This document shows, in pieces, positions 4,448 to 59,206 of a DNA stretch of 64,000 bases. Under the pieces are notes generated by a model. The model was given only the letters and a program-made list of their open reading frames with translations, was not told the origin of the DNA and ran no database searches. Position 1 is the stretch's first letter, and each line of letters starts with the position of its first letter. This DNA comes from Dehalococcoidia bacterium (lineage in GTDB: Bacteria > Chloroflexota > Dehalococcoidia > Lucifugimonadales > UBA2985). The position numbers and the translations under genes were made by a program. The DNA is taken from NCBI GenBank assembly GCA_963555975.3, contig OY821663.2, positions 1,785,278 through 1,849,277 on the forward strand, given 5' to 3'.

Positions 4448-5337
4448 CTGCTTCTCCTAGAGTATACGTTGCGCACAATTATGGCAACCGCGTTCATCAT
4501 CATCAGCACCGTCAGAAGCAGCACAATGCCCGCCGCGGCGTTCTCCTGGAACGCCGGGAGCGGCCTGCCTATCCAGCTGTAGATCTGCACCGGCAGCACC
4601 GTGAACGAGTCGGTGGGCGACGTGGGCACGAACAGCACGGTCGTGAACGCACCGACCACTATCAGCGGCGCCGTCTCGCCTATGGCTCTTGCCAGCGCCA
4701 GAATGAAGCCGGTCAGTATGGTCGGCACGGCTGCCGGCAGCACCTGGTGCCAGACGGCCTGCCAGCGCGTGGCGCCCAGCGCCATCGCCGCCTCTCGCAT
4801 GGAGGGCGGCACAGACCGCAGCCCCTCTCGCGAGGCCACTATGATGATGGGCAGTATCAGCAGCGCAAGCGTGAGCGCCCCTGCCAGGATGCTGCGGCCC
4901 AGGCCCATCCCGTACACGAAGACCGCCAGCCCCAGCAGCCCGTACACCACCGAGGGCACGCCCGCAAGGTTGTTGATATTGATCTCGATTACGCGGGTTA
5001 TCCAGGAGCGCCGGGCGAACTCCTCCAGGTATATGGCAGCGCCCACGCCCGCGATGATGGCGAACAACGCCGTGAACGCCATGACCCACAGCGTGCCGGC
5101 CAGCGCGGACTTTGCGCCCGCCTCCTCCGGCTTGTAGGAGGGGTAGCTGTTGATGAAGTCCAGGCCAAGTACGCCGATGCCGTCCCGCGCTACGGTTATC
5201 AGCAGCACCGCAAGCACCACCACGCCCAGGAACGACGCCGTCATCGCCAGCGCCACGAACGCCGCGCCGCGGCCTCTGCGAAAGCCGTGGCCCCTGCGCG
5301 CCTTCCCGCCCCTGCTTATCGTGATGTTGCGTATCAC
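4441..5337 (-). CDS. pstA: phosphate ABC transporter permease PstA
   Basis: A GTG start overlaps the pstC stop (GTGA at 5337-5334). It is a multi-TM permease containing ...[13 protein letters not shown]... Confidence 0.88.
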
Positions 5338-6287
5338 TCGTATATCTCCCTGAACTTTGCCAGCACAAGCTGAGCCAGCAGGTTGAGCGACAGCGTGAAC
5401 AGGAACAGCATGAGGCCCACGGCGAAGATGCTCTCGTACTCCACGGTGCCGCGCGGCGTGTCTCCGGTGGCAACCTCCATGATGTACGCCGTCATGGTCT
5501 GCATGGCCTCCAGCGGGTTCCACGACAGGTTGGAGACGCCGCCCGCGGCGATGGTGACTATCATCGTCTCGCCGACGGCCCGCGCCAGCGCGAGCAGGGC
5601 CGCGGCAACGATGCCGGACAGCGCCGCCGGCACCACTACCTTCACCGACACCTGGAAGCGGTCCGACCCGACCGCGTACGCCCCCTCGCGCAGCGACGTG
5701 GGCACGGCGCGCATTGCGTCCTCGCTGAGCGACGCCACCATAGGTATCAGCATCACGCCCATCGCCATAGCCGCGCCCAGCGCGGTGAATATCGTGTCCG
5801 TGTTGAACAGCGGTTTGATTATGGACGGGTTGATGAAAGATATGGCGAAGAACCCGAACACCACGGTCGGGATGCCCGCCAGAACCTCCAGTACGGGCTT
5901 CACCGTGGAGCGTATGCCCTCGGGCGCGTACTCGCTCAGGTAGATTGCGGTAAGCAGGCCCACCGGAAACGCTATGCCCAGCGCCATGAATGAGATGAGC
6001 GCGGTTGCCGAGAGGAGGGGCAGCACGCCGAACTGCTTTATCGAGAAGAGCGGCGTCCACTCCGTGCCGGTCAGGAACTCGACCACCGACACCTCGCGGA
6101 AGAAGAGCAGCGCTTCCTCCAGCAGCACCAGCACTATGCCCACGGTCGTCACCACGGACACCAGCGCGCATGTGAACAGGAACGCGAGGATGGGCGCTTC
6201 CCGCAGCCTCTGCCGGAGGCGCCGCTTTCTCGCAGACTCGGCGATGGTGTTCGCCAACCTACTGCGTCCTCTCCAGGACATCGCCAA
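5334..6287 (-). CDS. pstC: phosphate ABC transporter permease PstC
   Basis: Multi-TM permease with LREGAYAVGSDRFQ in the EAA-loop region. It sits between pstS and pstA. The start is uncertain (6287 or 6281). Confidence 0.88.
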   Translation of the reverse strand: MAMSWRGRSRLANTIAESARKRRLRQRLREAPILAFLFTCALVSVVTTVGIVLVLLEEALLFFREVSVVEFLTGTEWTPLFSIKQFGVLPLLSATALISFMALGIAFPVGLLTAIYLSEYAPEGIRSTVKPVLEVLAGIPTVVFGFFAISFINPSIIKPLFNTDTIFTALGAAMAMGVMLIPMVASLSEDAMRAVPTSLREGAYAVGSDRFQVSVKVVVPAALSGIVAAALLALARAVGETMIVTIAAGGVSNLSWNPLEAMQTMTAYIMEVATGDTPRGTVEYESIFAVGLMLFLFTLSLNLLAQLVLAKFREIYE

Positions 6288-48550: not shown

Positions 48551-49306
48551 ATGGGTATCATTAGCGCGGCGCGTATACTCCCGCCACAGGAGGCGCAAGT
48601 CGTGACAACCCCGCTAGGCGAACGGCTGATGGACGTGTACCGGCATCTGCTGGCGCGCTACGGGCCGCAGGACTGGTGGCCAGGCGACTCCGCGTTCGAG
48701 GTCATCCTCGGCGCCATCCTCACGCAGTCCGCGGCGTGGACGGGCGTTGAACGCGCGCTCGCCAACCTCAAAGCCGCGGGCGTCTTCTCGCCCGCCGCGC
48801 TCCGTGCCGTCCCCATCGACGATCTGGCAACGCTCATCCGCCCCTCGGTCTACTTCAACGCCAAGGCGCGCAAGCTCAAGGCGTTCGTCGAGCACCTCGG
48901 CGAACGCTACGCCGACGACCTAGACGCGATGTTCGGGCAGGACGCGGAGACGCTGCGAGCGGAGCTGCTGTCCATCCACGGCATCGGCGAGGAGACGGCG
49001 GACGACATCATCCTGTACGCCGCAGGCAAGCCGGTGTTCGTCATGGACGCCTACACGCAGCGCATCATGGGCCGGATGGGGATCGCTCCGCCGGTGGAAC
49101 GATACGGGGCGTACCAGTCGATGTTCATGGACAACCTGCCGCGTGACGCGGGCCTGTTCAACGAGTACCACGCGCTGCTGGATCGGCACGGCGTCGAGGC
49201 GTGCCGCAAGCGATCGCCGCTGTGCGAGTCGTGCTGCCTGCTGGCGGTGTGCGCCACGGGCGCGGCGGCCACCGCATCCGTCATCCCCGCGAAAGCGGAG
49301 GTCTAG
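48551..49306 (+). CDS. endonuclease III-related HhH-GPD protein with a 4Fe-4S cluster loop
   Basis: HhH (LLSIHGIGEETAD) and cluster motif C-x6-C-x2-C-x5-C (CRKRSPLCESCCLLAVC). The start is uncertain (48551 or about 48629). Confidence 0.8.
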   Translation: MGIISAARILPPQEAQVVTTPLGERLMDVYRHLLARYGPQDWWPGDSAFEVILGAILTQSAAWTGVERALANLKAAGVFSPAALRAVPIDDLATLIRPSVYFNAKARKLKAFVEHLGERYADDLDAMFGQDAETLRAELLSIHGIGEETADDIILYAAGKPVFVMDAYTQRIMGRMGIAPPVERYGAYQSMFMDNLPRDAGLFNEYHALLDRHGVEACRKRSPLCESCCLLAVCATGAAATASVIPAKAEV

Positions 49307-49348
49307 GGCGTGTTCACACTACGGGATGGTTTGCGGCATGACGCGCGC

Positions 49349-49572: not shown

Positions 49573-49643
49573 ACTCGTCCTGGCGCGCGAGCGGCGCGAT
49601 TGATAATCGATAGCGCATTGGGTAGAATCGGCTGAAAGGCGTA

Positions 49644-49720
49644 GGGCCGTTAGCTCAGTTGGTAAGAGCTCCGGACTTTTAATCCGGGAGTCCAGGGTTC
49701 GAATCCCTGACGGCCCACCA
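49644..49720 (+). tRNA. tRNA-Lys (anticodon TTT), CCA encoded
   Basis: Hand-folded. Acceptor GGGCCGT/ACGGCCC, anticodon stem CCGGA/TCCGG with loop CTTTTAA, and T arm CAGGG-TTCGAAT-CCCTG. Confidence 0.9.
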
Positions 49721-49823
49721 GACTTGATAAGATCAAGAACCTTCACGCTGGAGGTTCCAGAGAAGTCGTCATCTGTGCATGAGGTTGAAGGCCGCTGCCG
49801 CCATTGACCGCATCGCTGAAGGG

Positions 49824-50402
49824 TCACGCCTTGCTGAGCTTGATTGTTCCTACCTCTCCCCTTCCGCGCCCCGTGTAGTAGTCGCCCTCAAGCCCTGTGC
49901 CGGTGAGATATAGAGTTGCCGTACCACGGTGCATCTCCATTGTGCCTGGAGCATTCGACTTGGGCTCGTTCACGTACTGGTAGGACAGCTCGGGATTGGG
50001 AAGGTCAGAGGTCCTCAGGCTGGCCGCGATGCTCCGTGAGCGAGAATGTTCACTTTCCAGACTGACAATTATCTTTGACCATCGCTGCGAGATGACGACG
50101 GAAACCGAGTGGGCGCTGCCACCCTGGCCGTATGAGGATTTGACCTCACCGACCCACTTCCCGTTGAGATCGGGAAGTTGAACAAGGTTGAGCTTTCTGA
50201 ACAGACCGAGCTTCCACACGCAGCGGTCGAACAACCAGTACAGGCCTGAGTAAAGCCCCGCAAATGAGGGTACGCTCAACCACCACTGCGGGTCGAAGTC
50301 GATGACATCCAGCACGATGTGAAAGAGCCAAACCATCAGGATACTGGCGGCAGCGAGCGCTATCACCACTTTATCATGGCCCTCTACCTCGTAGGAGTGC
50401 AT
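49824..50402 (-). CDS. Cap15-like CBASS effector (two TM helices plus beta-strand-rich domain, S-2TMbeta type)
   Basis: Two N-terminal TM helices (VVIALAAASILMVWLFHIVL, LSVPSFAGLYSGLYWLF). These are followed by LNGKWVGEV...VVISQRWSKIIVSLESEHSRSRSIAASL...LSYQYVNEP...HRGTATLYL...LEGDYYTGRGRGEVGTIKL, which matches my recollection of the SMODS-associated 2TM-beta effector. It lies 9 nt downstream of an NTase remnant. Confidence 0.65.
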   Translation of the reverse strand: MHSYEVEGHDKVVIALAAASILMVWLFHIVLDVIDFDPQWWLSVPSFAGLYSGLYWLFDRCVWKLGLFRKLNLVQLPDLNGKWVGEVKSSYGQGGSAHSVSVVISQRWSKIIVSLESEHSRSRSIAASLRTSDLPNPELSYQYVNEPKSNAPGTMEMHRGTATLYLTGTGLEGDYYTGRGRGEVGTIKLSKA

Positions 50403-50411
50403 TCGAGGAGA

Positions 50412-50885
50412 CTACCTCCAGTTGTTCCACAGAGATGCCAGCCCATTCGCAAATGCCTTTGCGTCCTCCACTGACCACTGTTCAGACGATGGACCGGACA
50501 GCCACTGCTGACCATTCTGGCAGATGAGCCAATCGAGGTCGTTCTGAACCACCCAGTTGACGATTGAGCGGTAGGTTTCCCGGAAGCTGTACTGAAACGC
50601 TGAGTCTGGCGCATTGTAGACGAGGCACTCGACAAAGTAGGACGGAGCAAGGTCAGGGCTGATCCTGCCAGTGGACACCAAGCGATTCCGGGCATTCTTG
50701 AACATCCTCACAGTTCGTTTGTACCGGTCCCAGGTGCGTGCGCTCTTGACGGCGCCGTTCTTGTAGTGCTCTTTGGGGTAGTTGACGATCCAGCGCTTGT
50801 CACGCAGAGCCAAAAAGGTGACGCCTTCCACGTACGATGAGTAGCTGGTGTACCTCCGATGCTGCTTGCAGACTAGGCAGTCCAT
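50412..50885 (-). pseudogene. 5'-truncated CD-NTase/SMODS-type nucleotidyltransferase (C-terminal half only)
   Basis: 157 aa with NYPKEH...YKRTVRMFKNARN...APSYFVECLVYNAP (post-catalytic helical half). There is no GS...DxD core and an in-frame TGA five codons upstream of the first ATG. The ORF collides with the hsdM 5' end. Confidence 0.6.
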
Positions 50886-52695
50886 CAGTCCAACCCTTCA
50901 AGCCATCCGTGCCAGGCTGGATCTGACGCAGGAGCAGCTCGCCGAGAGGCTCGGCGTGTCGTTTGCCACCGTGAACCGGTGGGAGGGCGGCGTGACCATG
51001 CCGCAAAAGGCGGCCCAGACAGCCATCGCCGCGCTTGCTGTCGAGGCGGGCATCGACGCCGCTGAGCCAGCCGTTGATGAGGCAGAGTCCGCTGCCCGCG
51101 TGACCCGTCGGCGCTCCCGCCGGCAGGCCGTCGTTCCCACCACCAAGGACATGGAGCAGATGCTGTGGGGCGCCGCCTGCTCAATCAGAGGCGAAAAGGA
51201 CGCGTCCAAGTTCAAGGACTACCTGCTGCCGCTCCTTTTCCTCAAGCGCCTCTCCGACGTGTTCGACGACGAGATCGAGCGGCTGGCACAGGAGTTTGGG
51301 GACCGGGCAATCGCGCAGGAGATCGCGGAGAGTGACCACGACCTGCTGCGCTTCTACCTGCCGCCGGAGGCCCGCTGGGGCGTGGTCAACGGCCGGGAGC
51401 CGCACGACTGGCCCCTCGACGCGCAGGGCCGCAGCGCCCGCCCCCGCGACGTCGGCGAGCGCCTGACCCTGGCCGTGCGCGCCGTCGTGCGTTACAATCC
51501 CACGCTCTCCGGCGTCATCGACCTGGTGGACTTCGCATCGGAGCGCAACGGCGAGCGCGACCTCAACCCGGCCCGGCTCGCCTCCGTCGTCGAGACCTTC
51601 TCCGACCCCCGCTATCGCCTGGGGCTGGCCGACGTTCAGCCCGACTTCCTGGGCCGCGCCTACGAGTACCTGCTCCGAAAGTTCGCCGAGGGCTCCGGCC
51701 AGAGCGCGGGCGAGTTCTTCACCCCCACCGAGGTCGGCTTCCTCATGGCTCACATCATGCGCCCCCGGCCCGGCGAGACGTGCCACGACTACGCCTGCGG
51801 CTCGGCGGGACTGCTCATCAAGCTCCAGCTAGTGGCTCGCGAGACTGACCCCACCAGCCGCGTCCCTCTCAGGCTCTACGGGCAGGAGCTGCAGGCCGAC
51901 AGCTACGCCGTCGCCCACATGAACGCCATCATCCACGACATGGAGGTCCGGATAGAGCGCGGCGACACCATGATCAACCCCAAGTTCAAGGACGCCGCAG
52001 GCCGCATCACGGGCCACGACGTCGTGGTCGCCAATCCCATGTGGAACCAGGACTTCAACCAGGGCGTTTTCGAAAACGACCCGTTCGACCGCTTCCGCAC
52101 CGCCGGGGGCGTCACCACCGGCAAGGGCGATTGGGCCTGGCTCCAGCACACCCTGTCCTGCCTGAACGACCGAGGGCGGGCTGCCGTGGTGCTGGACACC
52201 GGCGCGGTGACTCGCGGCTCCGGCAGCAAGAACGAGGACAGGGAGCGCAACATCCGAAGGTGGTTTGTGGAGCGTGACCTGGTGGATGGCGTGATCCTTC
52301 TGCCGGACAACCTCTTCTACAACACCAGCGCCGCCGGCGTCATCGTCGTGCTGTCCCGGCGCAAGCCGGAGGCGCGCAGGGGCAGGATTGTGCTCGTCAA
52401 CGCCAGCCGTCGCGTGCGCAAAGGCCGCCCCAAGAACTATATTCCTGAGGAGCACGTCCGCCCGATAGCGGCGATGTTCCTGAATGGCGAGCCGGTGGAG
52501 GGCGAAGTGGCCGTCATCACGCGGGAGCAGGCAGCGGAAGCCGACTACAACCTCAGCCCGAGTCGATGGGTGGGGCAGGCGGCGAGCGTTGATGGGGCTT
52601 CCATGTCCGACCTGGTTGCCGAACTCCATAGACTTTCTGCCGAGATACAAGCATCAGATAAACAGCTCTTCTCGGCGCTGGAGCTGCTCCGTTGA
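50848..52695 (+). CDS. hsdM: type I restriction-modification methyltransferase subunit HsdM with an N-terminal XRE-type HTH extension
   Basis: [32 protein letters not shown], then HsdM_N ([34 protein letters not shown]). Motif I is [10 protein letters not shown] and motif IV is the variant ANPMWNQ. The start codon is uncertain (GTG 50848 or TTG 50866). Confidence 0.88.
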
Positions 52696-53945
52696 AGCTA
52701 TCCGTTGTATCAGCGAAACTCGGCGATCCGAGCGTGGCCTCCGTGATTCTTGGACAGTCGCCCCCCTCGTCAGCCTATAATGAGAATGGAGAGGGACTGC
52801 CGTTCTTTCAGGGCAGGGCGGATTTCCAGCGACTCCATCCAATCCCACGTGTCTGGTGCACGGAAAGTCAGAAGTTTGCGGAGCCAGGAGACATATTGGT
52901 TTCTGTCCGAGCTCCGGATGGTGATGTCAATGTTGCATCGGAGCGTTGCGGAATAGCAAGGGGACTGGCCGCTGTTCGCCCAGGACCGGATGGCGACCCG
53001 TGGTTCCTGTACTTTGCTATGCTCTACTCCAAGCCTACACTGGAAGCTAGAGCCACAGGCTCCACATTTGACAGTGTCAACAGGAACACGCTGAACGACC
53101 TGGATATACCGTTCTTCGACATGGTGACCCAGACGGCAATTGGAGGGTTTCTGCGCTCACTAGTCTATCGGATTGAACAAGAGGATGAGGCTGTTCGGGC
53201 GGCCCAAACCCTCAAGCGCGCCGCCATGCGCACGCTGTTCACCCGCGGGCTGCGCGGCGAGGCGCAGAAGGAAACGGAGATTGGGCCGGTGCCGGAGAGT
53301 TGGGAGTTGAAGGCTATATGCGACCTGTTTGAGATTGGACAGGGGTTGTCTTTGAAAGGCAATCTGGCGACCGACGGTCAGGGAATGCCCTTTCTCCGAA
53401 CGTCGAATGTATATTGGGGTGAAATGGATTTAGGAACAGTCAGCCGAATGCGGCTAGTAGGCGATGCGCCACCCGAAAAGCTCCTCCGCAAAGGTGATTT
53501 GCTTGTATGTGAAGGGGGTGAAATCGGTCGTGCTGCTGTATGGGATGGCGAGATTGAGGGATGTCTATACCAGAACCATTTGCACCGTCTCCGCCCAATG
53601 GAATCTACCCAAACGAACCCTCTATTCGCTATGGCGTGGCTGGAAGAAGGGTTCAAGTACCGCAATGCCTACGAGGGCGCAGGAAACCGCACGACGATTC
53701 CCAATCTTTCACGCTCCCGGCTAGCAGGGCTTTCTGTTCCCCATCCAACTGTAGATGAACAGCGCGAGATAGTTGCCATTCTTGGTGCAATAGACGGCAA
53801 GATAGACCTACACCGCCGCAAGCGCGCCGTGCTGGAGGAGCTGTTCAAGGCGCTGCTGCATAAGCTGATGACGGGGGAGGTGCGCGTGGGGGAGTTGGAT
53901 GTCTCCAAGTTATTCAGCGTTCGAAAGAGGTGGAGCTATGGCTAG
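52692..53945 (+). CDS. hsdS: type I restriction-modification specificity subunit HsdS
   Basis: TTG start overlaps the hsdM stop (TTGA). It has two target-recognition domains separated by conserved helices ([11 protein letters not shown] and [16 protein letters not shown]). Confidence 0.88.
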
Positions 53946-54685: not shown

Positions 54686-54802
54686 ATGCGTACAGCGCCT
54701 GACCACATCACAACCTTGGCCTCCGGCGGCGAGACTGAGACGCTGGAGTTCAAGGAGACAACCGGGACGCGGGATGCGCGGGCAGGGCGCCGTTGGCTGT
54801 GA
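54686..54802 (+). pseudogene. fragment of an AlbA_2/Schlafen-type (divergent AAA-4) DNA-binding protein gene
   Basis: The 38-codon ORF begins ...GGETETLEFKETTGTR, the typical N-terminal ExxxLEFK signature, and then terminates. Confidence 0.45.
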
Positions 54803-54812
54803 CTAAGCTCAC

Positions 54813-55136
54813 GTGGAGGAGGAAATGAACTCAGAAGTATCCGTACCCAAGGACGCCCTCGCCGCATTCTGCAGGGAGCGCGGCGTCAAGCGGTTGTCTG
54901 TGTTCGGCTCGGCACTGCGGGAGGACTTTGGGCCCGATAGCGACGTGGACGTGCTGGTGGAGTTCGAGGAAGGCCGGACGCCGGGACTGTTCGGCTTTTC
55001 CGCCATGGAGTCGGAACTGTCCGCGATGTTTGGCAGGTACGTTGACCTGGTGACTCGCGCAGAATTGGAAGACAGCCGGAACTACATCCGCCGCAAGGCT
55101 ATCCTTGCATCAACCGAGGTGATCTATGAAGCGTGA
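54813..55136 (+). CDS. MNT-type nucleotidyltransferase (antitoxin of HEPN-MNT modules)
   Basis: GS-x10-DxD motif: FGSALREDFGPDSDVDVLVEF. Confidence 0.85.
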   Translation: MEEEMNSEVSVPKDALAAFCRERGVKRLSVFGSALREDFGPDSDVDVLVEFEEGRTPGLFGFSAMESELSAMFGRYVDLVTRAELEDSRNYIRRKAILASTEVIYEA

Positions 55137-55488
55137 CGACGCCTATTTGCTTGATATGCTGCTGGCGTCGCGGGACGCGGTAGAGTTTCGCGGGCCGGAT
55201 CACCTATTCGCAGTTCGAGAATAGTCGTCTGCATCAGAACGCTATCCTGAAGGCAGTGGAGATTGCTGGAGAAGATGCGTCCCGCGTGAGTTCCGGCACG
55301 AGAGAAAGCCAGACAGACATTCCATGGGGGCAGATAGTCGGTATGCGCAATCGCTTGGTTCATGCCTATTTCGACGTTGACATAGGTCTGGTCTGGCGGA
55401 CTGTTCAAGAAGACCTGCCGGCCCTGATATCACAACTCGAACGCATAGTGCCACCGGATTCCACATCCCATAGCGCCGAACACCAGCC

Positions 55489-55492
<4 letters not shown>
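55126..55492 (+). pseudogene. HEPN/DUF86 toxin gene carrying a frameshift
   Basis: The N-terminus MKRDDAYLLDMLLASRDAVEF is in one frame (stop at 55222). The rest (ITYSQFENSRLHQNAILKAVEIAGE...GMRNRLVHAYFDVD, with R-x4-H) is in the next frame, open from about 55184. The stop overlaps the hsdR ATG (ATGA). Confidence 0.7.
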
Positions 55493-57589
<2,097 letters not shown>

Positions 57590-57618
<29 letters not shown>

Positions 57619-58763
57619 TCCGAACGCGTCGGCTAGAGAGCTGGGGTTCCAGGCGTTCTCCCTGAAGGCGCGGGCTATGTTTTCAGCGCCCAACAGCCTG
57701 AGGATGTTGATGGCAGCGTTCCTTACAGTCGCCATTGCCTGTGGCGCTGCTCCGGTCCGTACCCGGCATCCATCCTCTCCCATACTCACGCCCCTCACGT
57801 AGTGGACGCGGTTCTCTATGCCCCAGTGTCCGCGTATGAGGCTGAGGAGCTTGTCGGCGGAGGTGTCAGGCCCCAGGCTGGTGATAGCGTACCGCACCTG
57901 CCTGGCCTCCCTGCCTCTGAGCCATCGGCGACTCTCCAACTTGATGACCTGCCTGTGCCCCGGCCAGTCCAGGTAACCTGCAAGAGCACAGGTGGCCCAT
58001 AGTCTGCGCACCTCCCACCGGTCTCCATGCCTGTCCTCAGTCTCCGTATACGCATATGGCTCTCCCGACACCGGCCGACTGAAGCACAACTCTATGTCCT
58101 CGTACAGGCTCTTCTGATTGCTCTTGACTATCACCACGTAATCCCCTCCATCCTCCACCACTCGCCGGCACAGATGCCGCTGGCAGTACAGGGCGTCTCC
58201 GGTCAACACCCTGCCTCTCATGCTCACCATGTCCAGCAGGGCGTTCGCCATGCTCAACTCCGACTCCTGCTTCTCTCCTATGACCCCCCTTTTTGTCCCA
58301 CCACCAGCGATAGCCGGTGGCTGTATAGCGATACCAGTCTGACTCCAGGAACCTCATCCCCTTGTATCCCTCTCAGCGCCTTGCCATCTATCGCTATTGC
58401 CTCCTGTTCCTCTCCCAACATGGACACGAAACACTCGCCAAGCGCACGCTCAAACTCATCCACGTCCAGCCTCTTGAACACCTTGTGCAACGTGGATACA
58501 GACGGCGTCTTCTCTCGCGTGAAGCCCAACGCCTTGAGCATCGCCGAGTCCTGCGTCCGGCCCCATTGGGCGATGGCATACAGACTACGGGCGCCACAGG
58601 CCATCGCCAATACCGACAGCGCCAATATCGCGCCCAACCGATGACGACGACCATGTCTGGACCGGGGATCAGGCACCTGCTCCAGCGCTTCCAGTAGGCC
58701 TGCGCCTAATCCTTCTGCCATAATGCCTTACTCTAATACCTCACCACAATAATGAAAAGACCC
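57590..58763 (-). mobile_element. ISAs1-family insertion sequence (1174 bp) with a split transposase
   Basis: Perfect 22-bp terminal inverted repeats GGGTCTTTTCATTATTGTGGTG (57590-57611; reverse complement at 58742-58763). The transposase is in two frames. 58278-58721 holds the N-terminal H-repeat/DDE_Tnp_1-associated part, LEALEQVPDPRSRHGRRH. 57601-58257 holds the DDE part, GHWGIENRVHYVRGVSMGED. Confidence 0.85.
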
Positions 58764-58852
58764 TAGGGGATTGACCGAAACCTTTGTGCACGCGGCATGG
58801 TTAGGGTATAATGCCAGGACTCCATCGGCGCGGCAAAAGGAGCACGATAGCC

Positions 58853-59206
58853 GTGGGCACGTTTGTAGCAAGAGTTCAGGTCAGCAGAGGCAAGAACAGC
58901 CCGTTTGAGGCAGTCGATGCGCTGGTGGATACCGGCGCAACCTACTCGATGTTTCCCGCCCAACTCTTGCGAAGCTTGGGAGTGGAACCTCTCGAAGAGA
59001 CGGAATTCACCCTGGCGGACGGAACCAGAAAGCCCTTCCAGTTGGGAGAGGTGCGGTTGCGTATCGGGTCTGCCGAGCGCCCCAGCATCGCAATCTTCGG
59101 GCCGGAGGGCCGCTCAATCCTGGGCGCCGTTTCCTTGCAGGAGTTCGGGTTGATTGCCGATACGACGCATCATCGCTTAGCTCCTGCCCCTGAGTTGACT
59201 CTCTAA
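58853..59206 (+). CDS. retropepsin-like (clan AA) aspartic protease, second copy
   Basis: GTG start after AAGGAG. The ATG at 58811 sits inside a TATAAT (58807-58812) and is unlikely to be used. D-T-G motif ALVDTGATYSMFP. Confidence 0.6.
   Translation: MGTFVARVQVSRGKNSPFEAVDALVDTGATYSMFPAQLLRSLGVEPLEETEFTLADGTRKPFQLGEVRLRIGSAERPSIAIFGPEGRSILGAVSLQEFGLIADTTHHRLAPAPELTL

Follow-up and report, generated by a model that had tools for sequence, protein, structure and literature searches.

What becomes of a membrane-disrupting defense effector when the cyclase that signals to it is lost? The question is raised by a locus in a 64,000-nt stretch of a Dehalococcoidia bacterium genome (assembly GCA_963555975.3, contig OY821663.2, positions 1,785,278 to 1,849,277 of the forward strand; the whole stretch is hereafter called the window), where cap15, the effector gene of a cyclic oligonucleotide-based antiphage signaling system (CBASS), lies behind a 157-aa open reading frame (ORF) that holds half of a cyclase of the cGAS/DncV-like nucleotidyltransferase (CD-NTase) type. 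The original prediction had the cyclase gene losing its catalytic 5' half to a neighboring type I restriction-modification (R-M) locus, and offered two fates for the effector, which would be either inert and awaiting decay or retained because another signal source activates it in trans. Upon comparing the locus with its relatives, we confirmed the observation, refined the position of the junction and found the interpretation partly supported: one internal deletion very probably disabled the CBASS operon and decapitated the adjoining hsdM gene, with Cap15 left as an intact, inert passenger in a decaying island. Coordinates below are positions in the window unless a locus is named, loci of relatives are labeled L0xx, and survey genomes are labeled G0xx.

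The cyclase remnant and the deletion junction

Both ORFs were confirmed in position, the 157-aa frame at 50412-50885 on the minus strand and the 192-aa frame next to it, and profile searches bore out that the former holds the C-terminal half of a CD-NTase only. The PADLOC cyclase profile PDLC00788 matched residues 2-156 at positions 138-297 of 297 (E 1.2e-53), and the NCBIfam model NF053871 ("anti-phage nucleotidyltransferase") matched at positions 137-294 of 294 with 152.8 bits, against a cutoff of 350 bits for the full length. A Pfam-A scan of the 157-aa ORF gave no match, so that the PADLOC and NCBIfam profiles were needed for its assignment; the profile search that had been proposed as a check was therefore silent in its Pfam part for this ORF, while the assignments to the CD-NTases (PADLOC, NCBIfam) and, for the 192-aa ORF, to the Pfam Cap15 families were obtained. 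With the 157-aa protein as the query against 1.84 billion representative proteins, phmmer returned 1277 homologues at E <= 0.001, the best 150 of which had a median length of 294 aa and typically aligned their residues 135-140 with query residue 2. The modal length of the cyclase family is 290-305 aa.

Of a CdnE-like CD-NTase of ~292 aa, the remnant keeps the last 53%, and it shares 78% amino acid identity with residues 137-292 of the cyclase of L018, a locus on a 2.37-Mb Dehalococcoidia chromosome. The full-length L018 protein (292 aa) matched PDB 6E0K over residues 1-291 (E 2.9e-87), a structure that we take to be the cyclic UMP-AMP synthase CdnE of Rhodothermus marinus. Compared with CdnE-clade CD-NTases (PDB 6E0K/6E0L), the window copy keeps the homologous C-terminal helical half, as both the profile and the phmmer matches indicate, but it lacks residues 1-139 and thereby the GS motif and the three catalytic aspartates of the pol-beta-type core (GS and [D/E]x[D/E]...D). 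In the L018 cyclase these positions are G48 and S49, D61, D63 and D137, all of them inside the stretch that is deleted in the window. The absence of a GS...DxD core, reported earlier for the sequence upstream, extends to the whole 2.37-Mb assembly, as tblastn with a full-length relative recovered residues 137-292 only and found the N-terminal half nowhere in the genome. The window copy is thus what is left of a CdnE-like gene, no longer an enzyme that belongs to the clade. Literature searches on "DS-2", as NCBIfam calls the cyclase family, returned nothing, and those on CBASS pseudogenes returned nothing relevant.

The loss could be traced to a plain gap in the alignment with relatives. In L018 and L019, a divergent arrangement is found in which hsdS and an hsdM gene with an N-terminal helix-turn-helix (HTH) domain run to one side of an 81-nt spacer, with HTH-hsdM nearest to it, and the genes for the CD-NTase (292 aa) and Cap15 (192 aa) run to the other side. 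Window positions 52580-50869 align with L018 3302-5018 (hsdM) and positions 50850-49795 with L018 5556-6608 (the 3' part of the cyclase gene and cap15), at a DNA identity of 86-87% on both sides of the gap, the range being 81-88% when the window is aligned with all of the intact loci. Homology breaks at 50873 and at 50869-50878, the alignments with L023, L025 and L028 also stop at 50873, and fine alignment makes 50873 the last cyclase-derived and 50874 the first hsdM-derived base. Mapping the breakpoint against full-length homologues, as had been suggested, thus moved the junction from the proposed 50886-50900 to 50873|50874. Relative to L018, the window lacks 17 nt at the hsdM start (the MTNITD region with its ATG), 417 nt of the cyclase gene (codons 1-139) and, between them, all 81 nt of the spacer; the ribosome-binding site and start codon of the cyclase lie within the deleted stretch as well. 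A functional type I CBASS would comprise an active cyclase and an effector read from a common promoter; here the active site, the ribosome-binding site, the start codon and the spacer are all deleted.

The same alignments account for the odd shape of the 157-aa ORF. An in-frame TGA at 50898-50900 and a gap of 9 nt to the 192-aa gene are present as originally described, yet the first codons of the ORF are of foreign origin: in alignments with the 5' end of hsdM from seven relatives, its ATG and codons 1-4 are antisense hsdM sequence, and the cyclase sequence proper is confined to codons 5-157 (V140-R292). The ORF would therefore be a chimeric open frame that took its ATG from antisense hsdM DNA and is in frame by chance, and the alignment of the aspartate in the leading MDCL with the third catalytic aspartate is a coincidence. 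The hsdM frame likewise stays open into cyclase-derived DNA, which gives rise to the apparent head-on overlap of the two genes. This overlap, previously read as a real one with the start of HTH-hsdM, is instead an artefact of ORF calling that marks the deletion junction, with the native hsdM ATG gone.

Could the 157-aa protein nonetheless be a functional stand-alone C-terminal-domain protein, for instance a regulator or a dominant-negative partner? Its frame is open over all 153 cyclase-derived codons, with no stop and no frameshift, and short homologues do occur in databases. These homologues have heterogeneous, mutually inconsistent boundaries, however, several of them with unrelated or frameshifted ends, and they look like fragments or pseudogenes more than members of a stand-alone family. 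Instead of a widespread stand-alone protein of this length, which would have spoken against a truncated cyclase, we found a singleton cluster among ~15 billion proteins. With a start codon in antisense hsdM DNA that has neither a ribosome-binding site nor a promoter, and a family whose modal length is about twice that of the ORF, a function of this kind is scarcely credible.

An artefact of assembly, or a minority deletion allele in an organism whose operon is intact, is another concern, as the assembly is of the uncultured type (3 contigs, 94.9% complete) and exact scans of metagenome contigs with a 30-mer and a 20-mer across the junction found no other occurrence. Against this stand the breakpoints themselves, which lie outside any repeat and share a microhomology of at most 0-2 nt, making a misassembly by repeat collapse unlikely. 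Furthermore, the contig measures 2.34 Mb, comparable deletions arose independently in other assemblies (L031, L032 and L033), and neighboring genes of the same island carry independent lesions. We consider an artefact very unlikely.

The proposed ancestral cassette and its repeated inactivation

Comparison with relatives also bears on the role of the R-M locus. HTH-hsdM adjoins an intact cyclase gene in L018, L019, L021, L024 and L029 (L022 was grouped with L018), and the HsdM proteins of these five intact relatives share 82-100% amino acid identity with the L018 protein, for which the window value is 84% (tblastn with L018 HsdM; residues 4-614 in a single segment). Given that the same hsdM-cyclase neighborhood recurs in five intact relatives, the R-M locus would be the ancestral divergent neighbor of the CBASS operon and no invader. 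The alternative of a type I R-M locus that arrived from outside, recombined with the operon and replaced the cyclase 5' half, as the original prediction had it, can point to a jump in GC content near the junction, from ~56% in the CBASS genes to ~69% in hsdM. But the window is colinear with its relatives on either side of a plain 515-bp gap, which also took the start of hsdM, and the neighborhood is the same in loci with an intact cyclase, so that we regard this origin as highly improbable and an internal deletion as the account to be preferred.

The cassette lies at 3187-6579 of L018, and likewise in L019, L021, L024 and L029, with more distant versions in L044, L046-L048 and L050; roughly two thirds of the loci (11/17 and 7/10) had hsdM adjacent to the cyclase-cap15 pair. 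In the close loci, the HTH of HsdM is of the XRE type, the 81-nt spacer is conserved and bears back-to-back promoter-like sites, and hsdM looks leaderless; the HTH of hsdM might co-regulate both systems. Directly 3' of cap15, three loci hold an ORF of 246-248 aa that has no match in Pfam or NCBIfam (L018 6654-7394, L019 6649-7395 and L033 6539-7273). The window has no such ORF: homology there stops 29-46 nt past the cap15 stop codon, and tRNA-Lys comes next.

A closer look at the spacer showed what the deletion removed. On the hsdM strand of L018, it contains TTGACC-18-TATAAT with 11/12 consensus matches, and only 7 nt separate the end of the -10 hexamer from the ATG, pointing to a leaderless hsdM mRNA in that locus. 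On the cyclase strand of L018, a TGn-extended -10 site falls within the opening codons of hsdM. Conservation across seven loci extends to the hexamers of the hsdM strand, to the -10 sequence of the cyclase strand and to the Shine-Dalgarno sequence of the cyclase gene. The deletion in the window takes the entire hsdM promoter-like site and the -10 element of the cyclase site, and a promoter consensus scan of 49600-51300 left no promoter-like site on the minus strand, the sole site found in the scan being the tRNA-Lys promoter on the plus strand (49600-49628). While hsdM thus lost its native ATG, its first 17 nt and its promoter, its frame remains open upstream to a TTG at 50866 and a GTG at 50848, both in cyclase-derived DNA; neither start has a clear ribosome-binding site, and all three HsdM domains are present. 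For cap15, the deletion would have cost both the signal source and the operon promoter, with its own GGAGG site kept.

In a survey of 401 genomes of the class, a cyclase homologue was detected in 26, and Cap15 follows 7/7 full-length copies at >=60% identity. The cyclase is frequently broken in related loci: L028 carries a frameshift near codons 180-192, L031 retains codons 229-292 only (the 5' 228 codons are lost), and L032, the same locus as G441, lost codons 125-200 in frame. Elsewhere, L033 is without the whole cyclase gene and codons 1-30 of cap15, with the hsdM start and promoter kept, and L050 (G214) holds cyclase residues 1-187 only, the 3' end and Cap15 being gone. The cassette thus appears to be inactivated often and independently, by lesions that strike both genes; an excess of loci with a dead cyclase and an intact Cap15 in our first survey was partly a matter of ascertainment, as that survey was queried with Cap15.

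The fate of Cap15

Cap15 is reported to be a membrane-disrupting effector that is switched on by binding of a cyclic dinucleotide, whereupon the inner membrane is disrupted (PMC12657218; bioRxiv 10.64898/2026.10.06.757031), and the Cap15 of Escherichia albertii binds c-di-AMP (bioRxiv 10.64898/2026.10.06.757031). The view that the 192-aa gene of the window encodes an intact member of this family (also called S-2TMbeta) was upheld by all searches. Pfam PF23471 (Cap15_TM) matched residues 11-64 and PF18153 (Cap15_CD_rec) residues 75-191 (E 1.5e-31), the PADLOC 2TM effector profile PDLC00703 matched over the full length (E 4e-60), and PDB 7N34 (Cap15) matched with E 2.9e-9. Hydropathy alone gives one clear transmembrane (TM) segment, with a peak at residues 12-34; a second, aromatic-rich segment spans residues 40-63, and both fall inside the Cap15_TM match. 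By sequence, the gene has two N-terminal TM helices, a C-terminal beta-barrel receptor domain and a cyclase gene directly upstream, its start codon lying 9 nt after the stop codon of the remnant. Close homologues are 86-90% identical and all 192 aa long, and across 101 full-length homologues the window protein keeps 45/45 of the columns that are >=98% conserved. One substitution in the receptor domain, E165Y (codon ~49908-49910), is unique to the window protein: among 100 homologues, 91% have Glu at this column and not one has Tyr. The window protein passes every sequence-level test of the S-2TMbeta family, and oligomerization upon nucleotide binding and membrane disruption are predicted for it.

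The resemblance to characterized type I CBASS with Cap15, from E. albertii and Yersinia aleksiciae (PDB 7N34/7N35; the DancE-Cap15 operon of E. albertii), extends to the two-gene layout, a CD-NTase followed by a protein of ~190 aa with two TM helices and a beta-barrel receptor, and the receptor domain of the window protein aligns to 7N34. The differences are that in the window only a dead 3' fragment of the cyclase gene is left and the operon has lost its promoter, so that no signaling is possible, and that the host is a Dehalococcoidia metagenome-assembled genome (MAG) instead of a proteobacterium. By analogy with known Cap15 systems, the ancestral locus would have been a type I CBASS operon (a 292-aa CdnE-like CD-NTase, 9 nt and the 192-aa Cap15) divergent from HTH-hsdM/hsdS across the 81-nt spacer, in which infection would have led the cyclase to make a cyclic dinucleotide, to be bound by the Cap15 beta-barrel, and Cap15 would have oligomerized and disrupted the inner membrane. 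A single 515-bp deletion at 50873|50874 then stripped, as the alignments show, the cyclase active site and start, the spacer and the hsdM 5' end. Thereafter, no cognate signal would be made, cap15 and hsdM would be without a recognizable promoter, and Cap15 would remain as an inert passenger.

An S-2TMbeta effector left without its nucleotide may be harmless or not, according to the signaling mode that is used: OptE, the Cap15 homologue of Panoptes, acts in reverse and is toxic in its unliganded state (PMC12657218). Panoptes pairs an mCpol protein (OptS) with the S-2TMbeta protein OptE, whereas the partner of Cap15 in the window and in all relatives is a CD-NTase and no mCpol. A Panoptes-type partner was rejected, with no match to PF18182 (mCpol) anywhere in the genome. 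Since the cyclase was lost repeatedly while Cap15 was retained, this Cap15 is probably harmless when ligand-free, as in the classical CBASS mode and opposite to OptE.

The age of the deletion was approached through substitutions private to the window, which is sister to the group of L018, L021, L019 and L024. The remnant has 19 nonsynonymous and 16 synonymous private substitutions, against 31 and 23 pooled in four intact relatives, a difference that is not significant, and Cap15 has 8 and 8 against 33 and 33 in intact relatives. Branch-specific counts of this kind, which have low power, detected no relaxed constraint on either gene. With neither stops nor frameshifts in the remnant and with nonsynonymous and synonymous changes in an unaltered proportion, a recent deletion is likely, and constraint probably persisted along most of the terminal branch.

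We then asked where a signal in trans could come from. One other CD-NTase is encoded in the genome (G000:C1:119131-119967, corresponding to L003 7129-7968 on the minus strand; 279-307 aa depending on the start codon), directly after a BREX cluster of brxL, pglZ and pglX. It is full-length, matching PADLOC PDLC00790 (E 5.5e-96), Pfam SMODS above the cutoff and PDB 9NTN (CdnD; E 2.9e-56), with a GGS...DVD motif. With the CBASS cyclase family it shares 31% identity over 49 residues only. Homologues occur in 8/401 genomes of the class, and downstream of these and of those in three further loci lie a SLOG/DprA-like protein of ~205 aa, a Cap17-like_N protein or other genes, never Cap15. A 79%-identical SLOG homologue is intact 8.8 kb downstream of the second cyclase gene in the genome under study (G000:C1:109803-110336; L081 4765-5436, minus strand). 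The 8.8-kb block between the two holds tRNA-Val, a 1150-aa PD-(D/E)XK/RNase_H_2/SF1 helicase, a 918-aa methyltransferase and a 377-aa ORF, and after it come a gene for a Cas3-like helicase and a Cse1-like gene, as judged by sequence without a profile scan.

The search for other CD-NTases, which had been recommended, therefore yielded one, CdnD-like enzyme, and nothing links it to Cap15. That Cap15 is kept because it still works, triggered in trans by this enzyme or by a phage-borne cyclase, would be in keeping with the presence of a full-length second CD-NTase, with the conservation of all highly conserved residues in the window Cap15 and with the lack of excess nonsynonymous change in the Cap15 of four independent cyclase-dead lineages. 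The two cyclases belong to different clades, however (31% identity over 49 aa; best structures 6E0K for one and 9NTN, CdnD, for the other), the usual partner of the second is a SLOG-type protein that is present in the genome, and Cap15 is never its neighbor. In addition, the cap15 operon promoter is lost, E165Y is unique at a column conserved to 91%, and the rest of the island is in decay. We find this account improbable, and activation of Cap15 in trans unsupported. A related notion, which we hold to be equally improbable, is that purifying selection on Cap15 went on after the loss of the cyclase, full-length Cap15 being retained in four independent cyclase-dead lineages (the window, L028, L031 and L032); the orphan effector could then sense and kill on its own, in response to cyclic nucleotides from another system of the cell or from an invading element. 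Of the two fates first proposed, an inert effector awaiting decay is thus the better one, and retention through trans-activation did not hold up.

Several points weigh against a single deletion that left an inert Cap15. The parental sequence is known only through relatives that are ~86-87% identical, leaving an uncertainty of a few nucleotides in the breakpoint and too little precision to judge any microhomology. The loss of promoters rests on sigma-70 consensus scans, and the consensus may not fit promoters of Dehalococcoidia; hsdM could also still be transcribed by read-through that starts at the tRNA-Lys promoter, at 49600-49628 on the plus strand. Moreover, pooling the Cap15 genes of four cyclase-dead lineages (the window, L028, L031 and L032) gave 48 nonsynonymous and 68 synonymous changes against 239 and 236 in intact ones (p = 0.10), and an unrelaxed Cap15, which fits a recent deletion, would also fit continued selection; this is the only hint of retention.

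The defense island around tRNA-Lys

The locus sits in an island of defense genes next to tRNA-Lys, whose features are listed in Table 1. The decay of abortive-infection systems within defense islands is mirrored here by neighbors that carry independent lesions: an hsdR truncated by an insertion sequence (IS), a partial HepT, a relic of an AlbA_2 gene and the decapitated hsdM. The SLFN/AlbA_2-HATPase gene is intact after hsdS in relatives. The HepT ORF (55256-55492) covers positions 36-120 of 120 of its profile only. No C-terminus of hsdR was found past the IS, where the ORFs are unrelated to hsdR, and the IS itself has a 218-aa ORF that covers only positions 126-314 of a 314-position transposase profile. 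The small ORF at 58805-59206 (plus strand), between the IS and purF, has a DTGA motif and resembles a retropepsin-like aspartic protease.

Table 1. Features of the CBASS/R-M locus and its surroundings (window coordinates)
Feature	Position	Strand	Basis and remarks
tRNA-Lys(UUU)	49644..49720	+	ARAGORN; 3' end faces the cap15 3' end; left edge of the defense island
cap15	49824..50402	-	192-aa S-2TMbeta effector, full length; GGAGG ribosome-binding site 12 nt before the ATG
CD-NTase (CdnE-like) remnant	50412..50873	-	Ancestral codons 140-292 and stop; boundary from DNA alignments to L018, L019, L023, L025 and L028
Deletion junction	50873..50874		515 bp missing relative to L018 positions 5015-5529
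Chance ATG and codons 1-4 (MDCL) of the 157-aa ORF	50874..50885	-	Antisense of hsdM codons 6-10, as aligned with the 5' end of hsdM in seven relatives
Decapitated HTH-hsdM	50874..52695	+	Native codon 7 onward; Pfam HTH_3, HsdM_N, N6_Mtase
hsdS specificity subunit	52692..53945	+	Pfam Methylase_S, two stretches
SLFN/AlbA_2-HATPase relic, 73 nt	54699..54771		blastn, 76-78% identity to the L019 and L024 AlbA_2 genes
MNT-HepT toxin-antitoxin pair	54813..55492	+	Pfam NTP_transf_2, HepT-like; MNT intact
hsdR, 3'-truncated	55489..57618	+	Pfam and TIGR00348; last codons enter the IS inverted repeat
ISAs1-family IS, 1176 bp	57589..58764	-	26-nt inverted repeats at 57589-57614 and 58739-58764

Related genomes were also searched for an intact operon at tRNA-Lys, as had been suggested. 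Cap15 was found in 0/60 relatives of the same genus, family or order, and the genomes of the genus share the tRNA-Lys region only, with differing flanks. In other genomes, the cassette occupies differing positions, once by tRNA-Met and convergent with it as with tRNA-Lys in the window, and a search of the island in the window for an att-type direct repeat of the tRNA 3' end came back empty. Based on its absence from the 60 relatives and its varied insertion sites, the cassette looks horizontally acquired. On the other side of tRNA-Lys, a sequence resembling a repetitive extragenic palindrome lies at ~49260-49310, between the tRNA gene and one for an HhH-GPD glycosylase, and recurs at >=15 other places in the genome with 82-89% identity; the glycosylase gene and tRNA-Lys are not neighbors in genomes of the same genus.

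Overall, the locus is a case of ordinary pseudogenization in a defense island, with no new mechanism; the less common feature is that two defense systems lost their 5' ends, and the divergent promoter region that they share, to one and the same deletion. For the annotation and evolution of such loci it offers a case study, in which a plausible 157-aa gene appears to be a chimeric pseudogene frame and a gene "overlap" a deletion junction, and in which comparison with relatives rebuilds the deletion to within a few nucleotides. In Dehalococcoidia MAGs, what emerges is a recurring cassette of a Cap15-type CBASS and a type I R-M system that appears to have been repeatedly inactivated, a pattern relevant to what abortive-infection systems cost and how they turn over.

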